From: a virus
Lineage: Duplodnaviria > Heunggongvirae > Uroviricota > Caudoviricetes
DNA length: 14,507 nt
IMG/VR virus record: IMGVR_UViG_2740892236_000007
Reading direction: 5' to 3' (one strand)
The stretch's first letter is position 1; each line of letters starts with the position of its first letter. Below the pieces are notes generated by a model, which was not told the DNA's origin, ran no database searches, and was given only the letters and a program-made list of their open reading frames with translations. Both the position numbers and the translations under genes were made by a program. This document shows positions 1,042 through 11,486 of this stretch, one piece after another.

Positions 1042-2091
1042 GTGCGGGTATTACTTAGACCTGTTCTGGTGCCTGAGCTTGGGCTGGTGGTCCTTAAGCC
1101 GGGCCGTGAATCCATACAGATATTTCATAATCCTCGAGTGCTGGTGGAACCGGAACCAAAAAGCATGCGTAATCTGCCATCCGGAGTCGTTCCTGCCGTT
1201 CGCCAGCCGCTGGCGGAAGACAAAACATTGCTGCCGTTTTTTAGTAACGAACGGGTGATTCGTGCTGCTGGCGGCGTTGGCGCATTGTCCGACTGGCTAT
1301 TACGTCATGTTACATCCTGCCAGTGGCCTAATGGCGATTACCATCACACTGAAACAGTCATTCACCGTTATGGTACCGGCGCAATGGTGTTGTGCTGGCA
1401 CTGCGACAACCAACTGCGTGACCAGACATCGGAATCACTGGAGCTGCTTGCTCAACAAAATCTGACAGCATGGGTGATTGACGTCATCCGTCACGCAATA
1501 AGCGGTACGCAGGAGCGGGAATTATCTTTGGCTGAATTATCCTGGTGGGCGGTCTGCAATCAGGTGGTGGATGCACTACCTGAGGCTGTATCGCGTCGTT
1601 CGCTGGGATTACCAGCGGAAAAAATCTGCTCGGTGTACCGCGAAAGCGACATCGTACCGGGAGAGCAGACCGCCACCAGCATATTGAAACAACGCACAAA
1701 AAATCTTGCACCGTTGCCTTACGCCCACCAGCAACAAAAATCACCACAGGAAAAGACGGTGGTAAGCATCACCGTTGATCCAGAGTCTCCGGAATCTTTC
1801 ATGAAGCTGCCTAAACGTCGCCGCTGGGTTAAGGAGAAATACACACGTTGGGTTAAGACACAGCCGTGTGCTTGCTGCGGTATGCCAGCCGACGATCCGC
1901 ATCATCTGATTGGTCACGGGCAGGGCGGAATGGGAACAAAAGCACATGATCTCTTTGTGTTGCCTTTGTGCAGAAAGCATCACAACGAGCTGCATACGGA
2001 TACAGTGGCATTTGAAGATAAGTATGGCTCCCAACTGGAGCTGATATTTCGTTTTATCGATCGCGAGCTGGCAATTGGCGTACTGGCGTAA
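1042..2091 (+). CDS. ydfU: DUF968-family protein with HNH-like Cys/His motif (YdfU-like), 349 aa from GTG
   Basis: Long ORF (track 1003..2091); preferred start GTG 1042 with SD GGAGG; C-terminal CACCG...HH...C..HHNELH motif; position between rem and Q. Confidence 0.8.
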   Translation: MRVLLRPVLVPELGLVVLKPGRESIQIFHNPRVLVEPEPKSMRNLPSGVVPAVRQPLAEDKTLLPFFSNERVIRAAGGVGALSDWLLRHVTSCQWPNGDYHHTETVIHRYGTGAMVLCWHCDNQLRDQTSESLELLAQQNLTAWVIDVIRHAISGTQERELSLAELSWWAVCNQVVDALPEAVSRRSLGLPAEKICSVYRESDIVPGEQTATSILKQRTKNLAPLPYAHQQQKSPQEKTVVSITVDPESPESFMKLPKRRRWVKEKYTRWVKTQPCACCGMPADDPHHLIGHGQGGMGTKAHDLFVLPLCRKHHNELHTDTVAFEDKYGSQLELIFRFIDRELAIGVLA

Positions 2092-2104
2092 GTGGAGAAC
2101 GAGC

Positions 2105-2857
2105 ATGAACCTTGAAGCCTTACCAAAATATTACTCCCCAAAATCTCCAAAATTGAGCGATGACGCTCCAGCGACAGGCACCGGTTGTTTAACAATTACG
2201 GATGTAATGGCAGCGCAGGGGATGGTGCAGTCGAAAGCACCACTTGGGTTGGCCTTATTTCTGGCAAAAGTTGGTGTTCAGGACCCTCAGTTTGCGATTG
2301 AAGGCCTGCTAAATTACGCGATGGCACTGGATAACCCGACATTGAACAAATTGAGTGAAGAAATCCGGTTACAGATTATTCCTTACCTCGTGAGTTTTGC
2401 CTTTGCTGATTACTCCAGGTCTGCGGCAAGTAAGGCTCGCTGTGAGCATTGTTCAGGTACGGGATTTTATAATGTATTGCGCGAAGTGGTGAAACACTAC
2501 AGACGCGGGGAATCTGTAATCAAGGAAGAATGGGTGAAGGAACTATGTCAGCATTGCCATGGTAAGGGCGAAGCCAGCACAGCGTGCAGAGGGTGTAAGG
2601 GTAAAGGGATTGTTCTGGATGAAAAAAGAACCCGGTTTCATGGCGTACCGGTATATAAGATTTGTGGGCGTTGTAATGGAAACCGGTTTAGTCGTTTACC
2701 GACCACGCTGGCACGACGTCATGTCCAGAAGCTGGTACCAGACCTGACCGATTATCAGTGGTATAAGGGGTATGCGGACGTCATTGGTAAACTGGTAACA
2801 AAGTGCTGGCAGGAAGAAGCATACGCGGAAGCGCAATTGAGGAAGGTGACGAGATAA
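2105..2857 (+). CDS. quuQ: Late-gene antitermination protein Q, 250 aa
   Basis: Repeated CxxC..G zinc-finger-like motifs (CEHCSGTG, CQHCHGKG, CRGCKGKG, CGRCNGNR); SD GGAGA before ATG 2105 (track start 2075 is an in-frame upstream ATG overlapping ydfU); followed by promoter/terminator module. Confidence 0.8.
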   Translation: MNLEALPKYYSPKSPKLSDDAPATGTGCLTITDVMAAQGMVQSKAPLGLALFLAKVGVQDPQFAIEGLLNYAMALDNPTLNKLSEEIRLQIIPYLVSFAFADYSRSAASKARCEHCSGTGFYNVLREVVKHYRRGESVIKEEWVKELCQHCHGKGEASTACRGCKGKGIVLDEKRTRFHGVPVYKICGRCNGNRFSRLPTTLARRHVQKLVPDLTDYQWYKGYADVIGKLVTKCWQEEAYAEAQLRKVTR

Positions 2858-2888
2858 ATGATTTTTGCTGAAGATGGCGACATGATGT

Positions 2889-2917
2889 TTGCATTTTTCA
2901 AAAAATATGGATAAAAT
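2889..2917 (+). promoter_or_regulatory. Candidate late promoter (PR'-like) downstream of Q
   Basis: TTGCAT (2889-2894), 17-nt spacer, TAAAAT (2912-2917), about 30 bp after the Q stop; predicted start near 2924. Confidence 0.45.
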
Positions 2918-2962
2918 TTTTTCAACGATGGGCTTTGTATACCCGACGTTAAGAAAAAGTAG

Positions 2963-2990
2963 AAAACCCGCTGATGAGCGGGTTTTGTGC
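2963..2990. terminator. Bidirectional intrinsic terminator (tR'-like on +, cspF terminator on -)
   Basis: AAAACCCGC / GCGGGTTTT stem with TGATGA loop; A-run upstream and T-run downstream so it can act on both strands. Confidence 0.6.
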
Positions 2991-3278
2991 TTTAAATGGG
3001 GCAATGGTAATGTTGAATCTCATCCCGGGACTCATGTCTGTTAACTTATTATTTAGCTGGTGACTTGGTTATTTGCCTGATGTTTAAAATGTTTTCTTCC
3101 AGTACAATGTCCCTAAACACAATGAGTCTGCTTATTATATTATTAGCAGAGCTATTACGGCCAAAGTACAGCATAAGCTTTTAAAGCCAATCAACCAGTC
3201 ATCAAGACAGACGGGGTTATTCATAAAAACTCTCCATGTGTGATCCGATGGGGCCTGAAATTAAAGCTTTAATATAGC

Positions 3279-3491
3279 TCATGAAAGGTAAACATTGGCA
3301 GCTGAAGGGCCACGCAGACCATTTATCCGGCAAAATTCCACGCGTAATCCGGTGGTAATTTCTTCTGCATCGCGGAGATTGAGCGCTGAAACATGAAGCT
3401 GGACATCGATACGACCATCGGATGGGGTGATAAGACCCTTGCCGCTTTTGCCGTCAAAGGTTTTGACAATTCCTGTCATTTTACGGGACAA
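3279..3491 (-). CDS. cspF: CspA-family cold-shock domain protein, 70 aa (CspF/CspH type)
   Basis: Translation [27 protein letters not shown]...[10 protein letters not shown]; divergent from cspB. Confidence 0.85.
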
Positions 3492-3595
3492 AAAAATTCC
3501 TTAATACTGATAACTTGGCGCACTATACACACGTTCCTGAAGAAAGCTATAGTTTTTTGATGGGGTTGAAGATGGCTGGATGTCTAAAATAAACA

Positions 3596-3624
3596 TTGCT
3601 TCATATGTTCAACTATGCGTTAAT
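3596..3624 (+). promoter_or_regulatory. Candidate cspB promoter (cspA-like)
   Basis: TTGCTT (3596-3601), 17-nt spacer, GTTAAT (3619-3624); predicts a ~160-nt 5' UTR; GCCGAAAGGC upstream-box-like element at ~3761-3770. Confidence 0.45.
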
Positions 3625-3791
3625 GATTGCGTCGGTTTGAAGAACAGACGATATACGAAGTAGTTTACTAAAGCAGTTCTCATTTCAGGTGTTATTCACT
3701 TATTCCTTCTTTGAGTCTCTCCAATTAAGTACGAAGTCGTTTCTGTTATGCAAACCATTTATGCCGAAAGGCTCAAGTTAAGGAATGTAGA

Positions 3792-4007
3792 ATGTCAAAT
3801 AAAATGACTGGTTTAGTAAAATGGTTTAACGCTGATAAAGGTTTCGGCTTTATTTCTCCTGTTGATGGTAGTAAAGATGTGTTTGTGCATTTTTCTGCGA
3901 TTCAGAATGATAATTATCGAACCTTATTTGAAGGTCAAAAGGTTACCTTCTCTATAGAGAGTGGTGCTAAAGGTCCTGCAGCAGCAAATGTCATCATTAC
4001 TGATTAA
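3792..4007 (+). CDS. cspB: Cold-shock protein CspB, 71 aa
   Basis: Translation [71 protein letters not shown] with RNP motifs. Confidence 0.95.
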
Positions 4008-4288
4008 AATTCATCGCTCGTCTGTATACGATAACGAAGAAGGCTGATGCCTGAGTAGAGATACGGACAGAGTAGTGAATATTGGATCTCTTTAATAAAA
4101 AGTAAGGAGGTCCAATACATGAAACAATGGCTAGCATATTTGGCAAAATCTTAATCAGGAAAAGTATGCTAACCATTGTGGTGAAGTGCAGGTTTGCTGC
4201 ATGAATAGTTTTACAGCAGAAGCTAACTGCTGGCATGGCAAAACAAAGTGCGTAAGTGGATGACTCCCACAAAAAGCACCACAATCTC

Positions 4289-4311
4289 AAACCCGCTCAG
4301 GCGGGTTTTTT
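4289..4311 (+). terminator. Rho-independent terminator ending the cspB transcription unit
   Basis: AAACCCGC / GCGGGTTT stem, TCAG loop, T-run. Confidence 0.6.
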
Positions 4312-4370
4312 ATTATCTGCTTTAAATATATTATTAAAATATAAAAAATACTTGTTACTAATAAAATCAA

Positions 4371-4541
4371 TCAGGCTACAGCTTTAAGATTTGTCTGGAA
4401 TACTTTGTTGCAATGAGGGCAGATCAAAAGGGCACCTTTTTGTACTCTTGAAAAACTGTGTTCTGACTCTTGGGTGCAGTTTGGGCAGGAACATTTAACG
4501 AGATAATTACGGCGTGATTTTGAGTTTTTACGTTCTGACAT
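4371..4541 (-). CDS. Small zinc-ribbon-like protein, 56 aa (two CxxC pairs)
   Basis: Preferred internal ATG 4541 with AGGAAAAG SD; MSERKNSKSRRNYLVKCSCPNCTQESEHSFSRVQKGALLICPHCNKVFQTNLKAVA; track ORF 4371..4592. Confidence 0.5.
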   Translation of the reverse strand: MSERKNSKSRRNYLVKCSCPNCTQESEHSFSRVQKGALLICPHCNKVFQTNLKAVA

Positions 4542-4760
4542 AGGCTTTTCCTGTATAAATGGCCGTATACAGTACACTAAATATGAAAACATTTCTCGTA
4601 TTATTATTTTATATATGACTTTCTTTCAAAATAATTACCCACATTTTTAATGTGTATGTTTTTTTAGCGCCGTTGAGAACAACGTGTGCTGTCAAAACTA
4701 CCCCGTAGACTCCGATCTTTTCAAACATATTGCACCATCCGTGTACATCGGGGTGAGGAT

Positions 4761-4976
4761 ATGAAATCAATGGATAAGTTAACAACAGGTGTTGCCTATG
4801 GCACATCGGCGGGTAATGCTGGTTTCTGGGCATTGCAGTTACTCGATAAAGTAACTCCGTCACAGTGGGCTGCAATCGGTGTGCTGGGTAGCCTGGTTTT
4901 TGGCCTGCTGACGTATCTGACAAATCTTTATTTCAAGATTAAAGAAGACAGGCGTAAGGCTGCGAGAGGAGAGTAA
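4761..4976 (+). CDS. essQ: Class II holin (S21-type pinholin), 71 aa, dual-start motif
   Basis: SD GAGGAT before ATG 4761; MKSMDK dual start; two hydrophobic segments and charged C-tail; closely resembles recalled phage 21 S. Track start 4686 is an upstream in-frame ATG. Confidence 0.85.
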
Positions 4977-4980
4977 TCCA

Positions 4981-5288
4981 ATGACTCAAGACTATGAACT
5001 GGTTGTGAAAGGAGTCCGTAATTTTGAGAATAAAGTTACGGTAACTGTAGCCTTACAGGACAAAGAACGCTTTGACGGTGAAATTTTTGACCTGGATGTC
5101 GCCATGGACCGTGTTGAAGGAGCTGCGCTGGAGTTTTATGAGGCAGCAGCCAGAAGGAGCGTCCGGCAAGTCTTCCTGGAAGTAGCAGAAAAATTGTCAG
5201 AAAAAGTTGAGTCTTATCTGCAGCATCAGTACTCCTTTAAGATTGAAAATCCTGCCAATAAGCACGAGCGTCCTCATCATAAATATCT

Positions 5289-5292
<4 letters not shown>
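4981..5292 (+). CDS. ydfR: DUF1327-like protein inserted between holin and endolysin, 103 aa
   Basis: ORF with SD; stop overlaps endolysin start (ATGA at 5289-5292); synteny with Qin ydfR. Confidence 0.8.
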
Positions 5293-6316
<1,024 letters not shown>

Positions 6317-6527: not shown

Positions 6528-6678
6528 GGTGTTCTGGTTTGTTACAAATTTATCTGAAGCAGTCATTGTTATAATTTTATTATTTGTACCTCTTGAGATT
6601 TCCTTGTTGGTTTTTCTCTCTGATATTTTTTTTCGGACCATTCTGCCCAAGGGCTAATTTCTTCAAAAGGTAATAATT

Positions 6679-6891
6679 ATGTCTAACAAAATGACTGGTT
6701 TAGTGAAATGGTTTAACCCTGAAAAAGGTTTTGGTTTCATCACGCCGAAAGATGGCAGCAAAGATGTGTTTGTCCATTTCTCAGCAATTCAGAGCAACGA
6801 TTTCAAAACATTAACTGAGAATCAGGAAGTTGAATTTGGTATTGAGAACGGACCTAAAGGTCCTGCCGCTGTTCATGTAGTGGCGCTTTGA
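6679..6891 (+). CDS. cspI: Cold-shock protein CspI, 70 aa
   Basis: Translation [70 protein letters not shown]. Confidence 0.95.
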
Positions 6892-7095
6892 GGTAGACAA
6901 TATTACAAACCATATTCACTTTAGATGCCCGTGTTGTCATGGTTCCCAGTATAGAACATCATCTTTTGATGTTTCTGACATGAATCCTTTCGGGGCAAAA
7001 TGTATCTTTTGTAAATCAATGATGATTACATTTGATAATATTTCACAATACTTAAATGCCAGCCGTCTGTCGTTGGATTTAAAAAAGTGAAAATG

Positions 7096-10906: not shown

Positions 10907-11486
10907 TGGCATTCAGAATGAGTGAACAACCACGGACCATAAAAATTTATAATCTGCTGGCCGGAACTAATGAATTTATTGGTGAAGGTGATGCATATAT
11001 TCCGCCTCATACAGGTCTGCCAGCAAACAGTACCGATATTGCACCGCCAGATATTCCGGCTGGCTTCGTGGCTGTTTTCAACAGTGATGAGTCATCGTGG
11101 CATCTTGTTGAAGACCATCGGGGTAAACAGTTTATGACGTGGCATCAGGGGACGCGTTATTTATTTCTGAACTCGGCTCATTACCGGAAAATGTTACCTG
11201 GTTATCCCCGGAAGGGGAGTTTCAGAAGTGGAACGGCACAGCCTGGGTGAAGGATACGGAAGCAGAAAAACTGTTCCGGATCCGGGAGGTGGAAGAAACA
11301 AAAAACAGCCTGATGCAGGTAGCCAGTGAGCATATAGCGCCGCTTCAGGATGCTGTGGATCTGGAAATCGCAACGGAGGAAGAAACCTTGTTGCTGGAAG
11401 CCTGGAAAAAGTATCGGGTATTGCTGAACCGTGTTGATACGTCAACTGCACAGGATATTGAATGGCCAGTAGCACCTATAGGGTAA
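10906..11486 (+). pseudogene. Tail fiber assembly protein Tfa, disrupted by a 1-nt frameshift near 11128
   Basis: N-terminal part in one frame (10906..11250), C-terminal part [17 protein letters not shown]... in another frame (to 11486). Confidence 0.75.

Follow-up and report, generated by a model that had tools for sequence, protein, structure and literature searches.

Introduction

A well-described counterpart of the locus reported here is the late promoter PR' of phage lambda. There, the sequence AACGAT acts as a −10-like element that holds sigma70, with the polymerase paused 16-17 nt from the start for loading of the antiterminator Q (PMC7876045, PMC9388147), and the spacer between −35 and −10 contains the Q-binding element (QBE) (PMC9388147). 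Q proteins fall into the families Q-lambda (PF03589), Q21 (PF06530), and Q82 (PF06323) (PMC9388147). Short RNAs from antitermination-regulated promoters, among them StxS and IsrK, have been proposed as a class of small RNAs (sRNAs) (PMC7547250). We analyzed a 14,507-nt stretch of DNA assigned to a virus of the Caudoviricetes (IMGVR_UViG_2740892236_000007; "the window" throughout), concentrating on the region that follows its Q gene, quuQ. An initial annotation made from the sequence alone had proposed a Q-dependent late promoter and a short terminated transcript at this position. Our analysis indicates that the locus is very probably a lambda-type late-gene control cassette, consisting of Q, a PR' promoter with an embedded QBE, a sigma70 pause element, and an intrinsic terminator.

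RefSeq placement identifies the window as the cryptic, defective prophage Qin of E. coli K-12 MG1655, read from the reverse strand. Window bases 2000-5000 are 100% identical to MG1655 and to many other E. coli genomes. All positions below refer to the window and convert to K-12 coordinates (NC_000913.3) as 1645346 minus the window position. Coordinates published for NC_000913.2 are shifted by 1976 nt in this region, a value checked with cspB (1639363-1639578 in the older version and 1641339-1641554 in the newer). RefSeq lists no promoter, RNA, or terminator feature between ydfT (quuQ) and ynfS, and the cassette is apparently an ordinary member of a textbook system that was never labeled as such.

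Results

A mapped start and sigma70-associated pauses identify an active promoter directly downstream of Q. The quuQ gene (ydfT, b1559; 2105-2857, + strand) encodes a 250-aa antiterminator of the lambda family (RefSeq, Pfam PF03589). The promoter that the initial annotation had placed about 30 bp past its stop is present on the + strand: a −35 hexamer TTGCAT, read directly, at 2889-2894 (31 bp past the stop), a 17-nt spacer TTTTCAAAAAATATGGA at 2895-2911, and a −10 hexamer TAAAAT at 2912-2917, found by both direct reading and a promoter scan. Sun et al. 2021 (PMC7876045) took their start sites from a differential RNA sequencing (dRNA-seq) study. The start they used here is NC_000913.2 position 1640446 (−), equivalent to 1642422 in NC_000913.3, which we read from the "nearest TSS" column of their nascent-RNA sequencing (RNET-seq) tables in NC_000913.2 coordinates. 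It corresponds to the A at window position 2924 (+), 7 nt past the −10 hexamer and exactly the predicted +1, where the annotation had expected a start nearby.

The same RNET-seq tables contain four sigma70-associated pauses between 2937 and 2942 (+), all sharing 1640446 as the nearest start on their strand. The two main sites are 1640429 (−), which is window 2941 at distance 17 from the start (score 6881), and 1640430 (−), which is window 2940 at distance 16 (score 5783). Weaker signals fall at 1640433 (−) (window 2937, distance 13, score 1875) and 1640428 (−) (window 2942, distance 18, score 585). The Qin pause ranks fourth in the sheet sig70-greAB-_G1d, which holds distal pauses (16-20 nt) in a greAB-deleted strain. 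Distal-class pauses were attributed to a downstream −10-like element and likened to lambda PR' (PMC7876045), while the text of that study mentions neither prophages nor Qin. With a dRNA-seq start and sigma70-bound nascent RNA just downstream of it, the site directly 3' of Q is an active sigma70 promoter.

The hexamers by themselves are weak evidence for this promoter. It had been described as near-consensus, a label that does not hold for the −35 hexamer, which matches TTGACA at only three of six positions with the 17-nt spacer, or at four of six if read as TTTGCA with an 18-nt spacer; the −10 matches at five of six. Sites scoring 9/12, as this one does, number 26 in the window versus 26.1 ± 4.8 in shuffled sequences, and thus occur at chance frequency. 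This frequency is what speaks for a chance promoter-like sequence beside an ordinary terminator, a reading already refuted by the mapped start and pauses, by a composite motif, and by homology to lambda PR', and one at odds with the retention of the module across relatives. For the composite motif TAAAWT-N6-AACGATGGG, the window contains a single copy, and 200 shuffled sequences contain none.

Homology to lambda PR' extends without gaps from the −35 hexamer to +9, with 32 of 44 positions identical. Identity is 20/29 from the −35 through the −10 hexamer and 12/15 from −6 to +9 (both ungapped). Because the ungapped flanks match lambda at only 2 of 16 positions upstream and 8 of 30 downstream, the likeness is confined to the functional core. 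Past the −10, Qin reads TTTTTC-AACGAT-GGG where lambda PR' reads TGACTC-AACGAT-GGG at the same distance, and the Qin −35 hexamer TTGCAT aligns with lambda TTGACT. By this identity, the −10-like AACGAT and the following GGG at 2924-2932 (+) very probably constitute the sigma70 pause element. The spacer at 2895-2911, identical to that of lambda PR' at 11 of 17 positions, is a putative QBE.

Downstream of the start lies the hairpin foreseen in the initial annotation, the equivalent of the lambda terminator tR'. Inverted repeat search and folding place it at 2963-2986, beginning 39 nt past the predicted start, with a symmetric A-tract and T-tract. The repeat AAAACCCGCT/AGCGGGTTTT forms 10 pairs around a 4-nt loop, and its arms extend to 17 nt at 2956-2993. 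RNA spanning 2924-2990 is 67 nt long and folds at −26.2 kcal/mol (z = −5.6 versus shuffles). In the portion of the Term-seq tables available to us (Adams et al. 2021, PMC7815308), to which all Term-seq statements here refer, an RNA 3' end classified as "orphan" maps to NC_000913.3 1642356 (−), which is window position 2990 (+), with the flank ...AAAACCCGCTGATGAGCGGGTTTTGTGC|TTTAAATGGG. Three rows of the three-condition table begin with 164235, and this result rests on two of them. The start at 2924 and this 3' end probably belong to a single molecule, close in length to the RNA of about 65 nt that had been anticipated. Together with the PR' homology, the start, and the pauses, this 3' end supports the lambda-like arrangement of late promoter, Q-utilization site, and terminator proposed from the sequence.

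A second 3' end was mapped at 3158 (+; 1642188 (−)). Its entry adjoins that for 1642356 in one of two Term-seq table blocks and is absent from the other. It lies just past a palindrome at 3127-3150, TCTGCTTATTAT/ATTATTAGCAGA, which is perfect about its center, overlaps the stop of ynfS on the − strand, and has no T-tract. The palindrome may be a processing or protection site instead of a terminator. The 3' end at 3158 is compatible with some read-through of the first terminator.

A terminator scan flagged the hairpin at 2963-2986 on the − strand only, because the + strand tail TTTTGTGC has just 4 T. In a rival reading, the hairpin mainly serves its neighbors, ending ydfU-quuQ on the + strand and cspF-ynfS on the − strand, with the 3' end at 2990 derived from those mRNAs. 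Its symmetry and its score on the − strand are in keeping with this role, and "orphan" denotes only a distance of more than ~50 nt to any annotated gene end. Such an origin is nevertheless quite improbable. The start at 2924, with its very strong nascent-RNA signal, is 66 nt upstream with nothing between the two that stops polymerase, and relatives that lack a convergent gene keep a terminator in the same place. The earlier suggestion that the symmetric hairpin could also end the convergent cspF transcript is plausible from the sequence, although no − strand (K-12 +) 3' end occurs near the hairpin in these Term-seq tables, a result that also speaks against the hairpin serving mainly its neighbors.

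Comparison with relatives indicated that promoter, pause element, and terminator travel with Q as a module. The 153-nt promoter-terminator segment matched 35 phage records at 79-100% identity, and QuuQ used as a query against viral contigs found 80 loci whose Q is 94-100% identical; these we collapsed to 26 distinct variants. Among the variants, the −35 hexamer never changes, and spacer variation is limited to 4 of 17 positions, where Q itself is at least 94% identical. The −10 hexamer is TAAAAT, TAAGAT, or TAGGAT. AACGAT is nearly invariant, reading AATGAT in one variant and GACGAT in another. Positions +10 to +35 vary, and the linker and loop are the least conserved parts. Folding predicted a hairpin followed by T residues 40-65 nt from the start in all 26 variants, although weakly in two.

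The hairpin has been replaced in some lineages. A non-homologous stem, CCTCGC-TTCG-GCGGGG, stands at the same place in contigs L067 and L081, and yet another, AACCGC...GCGGTT, follows the same Q and promoter in L079 and L084. Relatives with a differing terminator about 45-65 nt past the start comprise L067, L068, L069, and L081, as well as L079 and L084. Since the stem was replaced at the same position, termination itself appears to be the conserved property. Immediately beyond the terminator, the lineages have nothing in common, and the boundary of the module is placed there. The records of SfV and Ayreon annotate the terminator and no other element of the module.

What follows the module differs among lineages. 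The initial annotation had noted that the csp genes separate the promoter from the holin gene at 4761. The 1.8-kb insert with cspF and cspB is confirmed, but it is not anomalous. Across all loci, the distance from start to holin ranges from 602 to 2346 nt, and because relatives carry 0.6-2.3 kb before the holin, 1.8 kb of moron DNA is the normal state of the module. SfV, mEp460, and Ayreon have 1.7-2.3 kb between start and holin, including a DNA methylase gene and further annotated terminators. In Stx2c-converting phages, the module lies 2.6 kb 5' of stx2A. One of these, LC727876 (L087, 4501-8448), encodes a Q with 93.8% identity to QuuQ and shares the promoter-pause-terminator module, which is followed by an open reading frame (ORF), a DNA methylase gene, tRNA-Met, and tRNA-Arg before stx2A/stx2B. 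Peculiar to the Qin lineage are a convergent first cargo gene and the 4-A/4-T symmetry of the hairpin. A second Qin-like lineage among the viral contigs (L039-L062) carries cspF in two fragments 108-330 nt past the start, is about 260 nt shorter from start to holin (1578 versus 1837 nt), and retains a two-way terminator with a 5-T tail.

The same order also occurs in a full-length Qin-like genome. In the 48.7-kb PhiR42_1, Q, promoter, terminator, cspF, cspB, and essQ follow one another with the same spacing, and beyond them, equally oriented, lies a complete lambda-like head and tail block. QuuQ is 99.6% identical in this genome, and the 153-nt segment, CspF, CspB, and EssQ are each 100% identical. 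The literature searched for PhiR42_1 yielded nothing.

We next considered the antiterminator. QuuQ matches Pfam PF03589 (E = 4e-54) as well as a DnaJ-type CXXCXGXG family, and the Pfam search returned PF03589 as the sole Q-family match, with neither PF06323 (Q82) nor PF06530 (Q21). Phages 82 and 21, which had been recommended for comparison, belong to the wrong families. We dropped them because Pfam places QuuQ in the lambda family, and the promoter core is likewise homologous to lambda PR'. QuuQ and lambda Q share 33% identity across 97% of the QuuQ length. Residues 1-120 and 160-250 align to lambda Q 1-125 and 117-207 (PDB 7UBM; phmmer E = 4.6e-36), covering the full length of the protein and, with it, the N-terminal part from which lambda Q builds its exit-channel nozzle. 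Given this end-to-end alignment, the quuQ gene looks intact.

Between the two aligned blocks, QuuQ has about 40 residues more than lambda Q (residues ~121-160; window 2465-2585, +). They repeat the CxxCxGxG zinc-ribbon knuckle, such that both copies align to lambda Q 117-125, and this segment also matches the DnaJ central-domain Pfam. In lambda, the zinc-ribbon arm of Q contacts QBE positions 11-13. The knuckle duplication may therefore alter DNA recognition, to judge by analogy with lambda.

Whether QuuQ is made is less evident. The ydfU start at NC_000913.2 1642654 (−) is window 716, supported by 460 reads (Kim 2012), with a promoter predicted by scan just before it, at 681-708. Term-seq adds an orphan 3' end at window 774 (NC_000913.3 1644572 (−)). 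These ends suggest that 716-774, between rem and ydfU-quuQ, gives rise to a short RNA of ~59 nt or to an attenuated leader, which could govern Q expression.

This observation bears on the possibility that the cassette is a decayed remnant. Promoter, pause, and terminator would still work, and the switch would never be thrown in K-12, either because QuuQ is not made or not active or because antiterminated transcription no longer reaches, or no longer matters for, the lysis genes. The sole present products would then be the 67-nt RNA and occupancy of the pause by sigma70 polymerase. We regard this state of affairs as possible though rather unlikely. It is in keeping with the loss of most late genes from this cryptic prophage (RefSeq annotation), with the 3' end 58 nt past the only start mapped upstream of ydfU-quuQ, and with the literature searched on ydfT, quuQ, cspF, and essQ, in which we found no functional study, including any of QuuQ activity or of a Qin late promoter. 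It is harder to reconcile with a full-length QuuQ that matches lambda Q from end to end, with the same arrangement in PhiR42_1, or with the spread of the locus: 1,608 of 5,426 complete E. coli genomes contain 80% or more of the 3-kb stretch 2000-5000, and in 1,265 records the best match reaches 99% identity or higher.

The 67-nt RNA (K-12 1642356-1642422, minus strand) might instead be a constitutive, trans-acting regulatory sRNA resembling StxS and IsrK. We consider this improbable. In its favor are the proposed class of short RNAs from antitermination-regulated promoters (PMC7547250), the stable 3' end in Term-seq, a linker at 2952-2966 that consists of five A-R-N triplets, and a 5' stem-loop in addition to the terminator. 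The stem-loop is predicted by folding at 2924-2950 (+), where the RNA of the pause element (AACG, UGGG) pairs with 2942-2950. Among 13 variants, pairing is retained in 98% of cells, and the changes at six of eight pairs affect one side only (G-C/G-U, U-G/U-A), which is weak evidence; there are no double compensations among these variants. The lambda transcript likewise begins with AACGA, with UCGUU at +19 to +23.

Other features of the RNA argue against a regulatory function. Its linker and loop are the least conserved parts among relatives, and its U-tail is short for Hfq binding. At gathering score, Rfam matches across the whole window comprised only two cspA thermoregulators and IS009, with none at the short RNA. 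Permissive Rfam scans of 2850-3250 and 2915-2998 returned Trp, Leu, and Phe leaders, OrzO-P, P9, isrJ, and isrK, on both strands. We rejected these sub-threshold matches as generic terminators that capture only the hairpin and U-tract. The isrK match, for example, scored 16.6 bits versus a gathering score of 50 and involved the terminator alone. We also rejected a 51-aa ORF at 2889-3044, annotated as a hypothetical protein in PhiR42_1, which runs through the terminator into sequence that relatives do not share.

Beyond the module, the first cargo is convergent, comprising ynfS (3135-3224, −; RefSeq) and cspF (3279-3491, −; Pfam and RefSeq). The cspF start is at 3515 (−) with 3 reads (Kim 2012 table), indicating that cspF is barely transcribed. 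On the + strand, cspB (3792-4007; Pfam and RefSeq) has its own promoter and a cspA-type 5' untranslated region (UTR), together spanning 3631-4007. Its start at NC_000913.2 1639739 (−) corresponds to window 3631 (Kim 2012 table), and Rfam RF01766 matches 3631-4023 with 158.8 bits. A strong intrinsic terminator at 4289-4308, identified by terminator scan, is shared by cspB and the convergent ynfU (4371-4541, −; RefSeq). Next to it, Term-seq has a 3' end at 1641060 (+), equivalent to window 4286 (−). The highest regional Term-seq scores (604404 to 1233565) lie elsewhere, at NC_000913.3 1641224 and 1641226 (−), or window 4120-4122 (+). These ends, at ...GGAGGTCCAATACATGAAACAATGG, follow the cspB stop by 113-115 nt and precede the 4289-4308 hairpin by about 170 nt. 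Hence, the main 3' end of cspB mRNA is seemingly not at the predicted terminator.

The first late gene is the holin gene essQ (4761-4976, +; Pfam PF04971), which opens a lysis cassette of essQ, ydfR, rrrQ, and rzpQ/rzoQ at 4761-6316 (+; PF04971, DUF1327, lysozyme PF00959, DUF2514; RefSeq). These late genes (essQ, ydfR, rrrQ, rzpQ) are downstream of the promoter and co-oriented with it. The Kim 2012 table gives starts for cspB, cspF, and ydfU, but no separate start for essQ, in keeping with the cassette reading, and none at PR'. Binding by minor-sigma holoenzyme between cspB and essQ was reported from genomic SELEX (systematic evolution of ligands by exponential enrichment) (PMC5493296). A second cspA-type thermoregulator 5' UTR lies upstream of cspI at 6533-6918 (+; RF01766, 112.8 bits). 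The late strand of this region thus bears two cold-shock genes, each with a leader of its own; a third, cspF, is encoded on the other strand. Further on, IS009 (RF02111) has a full-length Rfam match at 11248-11446 (+), with 218 bits versus a gathering score of 117. This match corresponds to K-12 1633900-1634098 on the minus strand and is antisense to pinQ.

Discussion

Public data place sigma70 initiation at A2924, sigma70-associated pauses 16-17 nt downstream, and an RNA 3' end at 2990. We assign the locus to the Q-lambda-type cassettes (PMC9388147) on the basis of its Q family, promoter, pause, terminator, and late genes, with Q binding and read-through presumed by analogy. If Qin behaves like lambda, sigma70 region 2 would re-bind the −10-like AACGAT at +1 to +6 and cause the pause. 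Without Q, polymerase would stop at the hairpin and release the 67-nt RNA. Once made, QuuQ would bind the spacer between −35 and −10 and contact the paused sigma70 complex. QuuQ and NusA would then load onto this complex with a nozzle on the RNA exit channel, as described for lambda (PMC9388147), and the loaded polymerase would resist terminators over kilobases with Q traveling along (PMC9388147, lambda).

In Qin, such a polymerase would pass the terminator at 2990 and then the site at 3158, run antisense to ynfS and cspF, and continue through the cspB leader and gene. It would read through the 4289-4308 terminator into essQ-ydfR-rrrQ-rzpQ and the remaining late genes, meeting any transcription of cspF, ynfS, or ynfU head-on. 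The symmetric hairpin may also stop the convergent cspF-ynfS transcript, which would shield PR' and quuQ from antisense transcription, and the symmetry of its A- and T-tracts could be an adaptation to this two-way use.

Several observations weigh against the interpretation of the locus as a lambda-type cassette. The + strand T-tract is short, versus 7 T in SfV-type relatives, and termination at the Qin hairpin may therefore be leaky, as the 3' end at 3158 would fit. The 3' end at 2990 could derive partly from ydfU-quuQ mRNA, and its "orphan" label fits either source. Conservation of the terminator stem is by sequence identity; compensatory covariation is absent among the relatives, which are too close to show any. 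In lambda, a −35-like TTGACT just 5' of AACGAT is used upon repositioning of sigma region 4. At this position Qin has TTTTTT, a match at three of six bases. Upstream, the only start mapped for ydfU-quuQ (window 716) is followed 58 nt later by the 3' end at 774. Finally, as Qin is defective, the circuit may have lost its phage function.

A lambda-type cassette in Qin would leave the understanding of the system unchanged, since its mechanism is textbook. Its value lies in giving one explanation, a Qin PR'-tR' cassette, to a dRNA-seq start, an orphan Term-seq 3' end, and a sigma70-dependent pause that is among the strongest genome-wide. The cassette provides K-12 with a native, chromosomal, single-copy loading site of the Q-lambda family. 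With an apparently intact cognate Q that has 33% identity to that of lambda, and with a diverged putative binding site, it would be useful for specificity swaps. Because the same module, with a Q about 94% identical, lies 2.6 kb upstream of stx2A, the properties of the Qin promoter, pause, and terminator bear on Stx2c expression. Should the 67-nt RNA prove to be a trans-acting sRNA after all, related phages would carry lineage-specific versions of it, one of them upstream of stx2c.

Comparison with known systems

Qin shares with lambda a Q of family PF03589 with the same end-to-end architecture, a 17-nt spacer, 6 nt between the −10 and +1, and AACGAT-GGG at +1 to +9. Both pause polymerase 16-17 nt from the start (lambda value from PMC7876045), and both have an intrinsic terminator ahead of the late genes and a constitutive short RNA, which in lambda is the 6S RNA. 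In contrast to lambda Q, QuuQ carries the duplicated knuckle, and its putative QBE spacer differs at 6 of 17 positions. The −35-like TTGACT of the lambda pause region is replaced in Qin. The short RNA is 67 nt, whereas the lambda terminator lies about 190 nt from the start. The Qin terminator is predicted to be bidirectional, and 1.8 kb of csp cargo, including a convergent gene, precedes the Qin holin.

Compared to its nearest relatives (SfV, mEp460, Ayreon, the Stx2c phages, and PhiR42_1), Qin has the same Q (93-100% identical) and the same promoter-pause-terminator segment (79-100% identical). The cargo of SfV, mEp460, Ayreon, and the Stx2c phages is a co-oriented DNA methylase gene with or without tRNAs and stx2, where Qin has the csp pair. 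SfV-type hairpins have a tail of 6-7 T but a short A-tract, and thus terminate one way only, unlike the 4-A/4-T symmetric hairpin of Qin. StxS, from PR' of Stx phage, and IsrK, from Gifsy-1, resemble the Qin RNA in arising by constitutive termination just 3' of an antitermination-controlled promoter (PMC7547250), but neither has any sequence relationship with it.

A further parallel exists within K-12 itself. The start at NC_000913.2 576452 (+) in the cryptic prophage DLP12, equivalent to 577229 in NC_000913.3 (L089 3190-3290, NC_000913.3 ~577190-577290), lies 169 nt 5' of the holin gene essD. It is preceded by a promoter-like TTTACG...TATGCT and followed within about 50 nt by the hairpin AAACCCGCCGTCGAGCGGGTTTTT. 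Its pauses at NC_000913.2 576465 and 576464 are the second and fourth strongest entries in the RNET-seq tables (PMC7876045). The DLP12 promoter-terminator pair thus resembles Qin in belonging to a cryptic K-12 prophage, in its top-ranked sigma70-associated pauses in the same data set, and in its closely spaced hairpin terminator. It differs in that its pauses, at distances 12-13, are of the proximal class, and in that nmpC and IS5 lie between quuD and the promoter, placing the moron before the promoter where Qin has it after the terminator. It thus seems that the strongest sigma70 pause sites of K-12 include late promoters of cryptic prophages.

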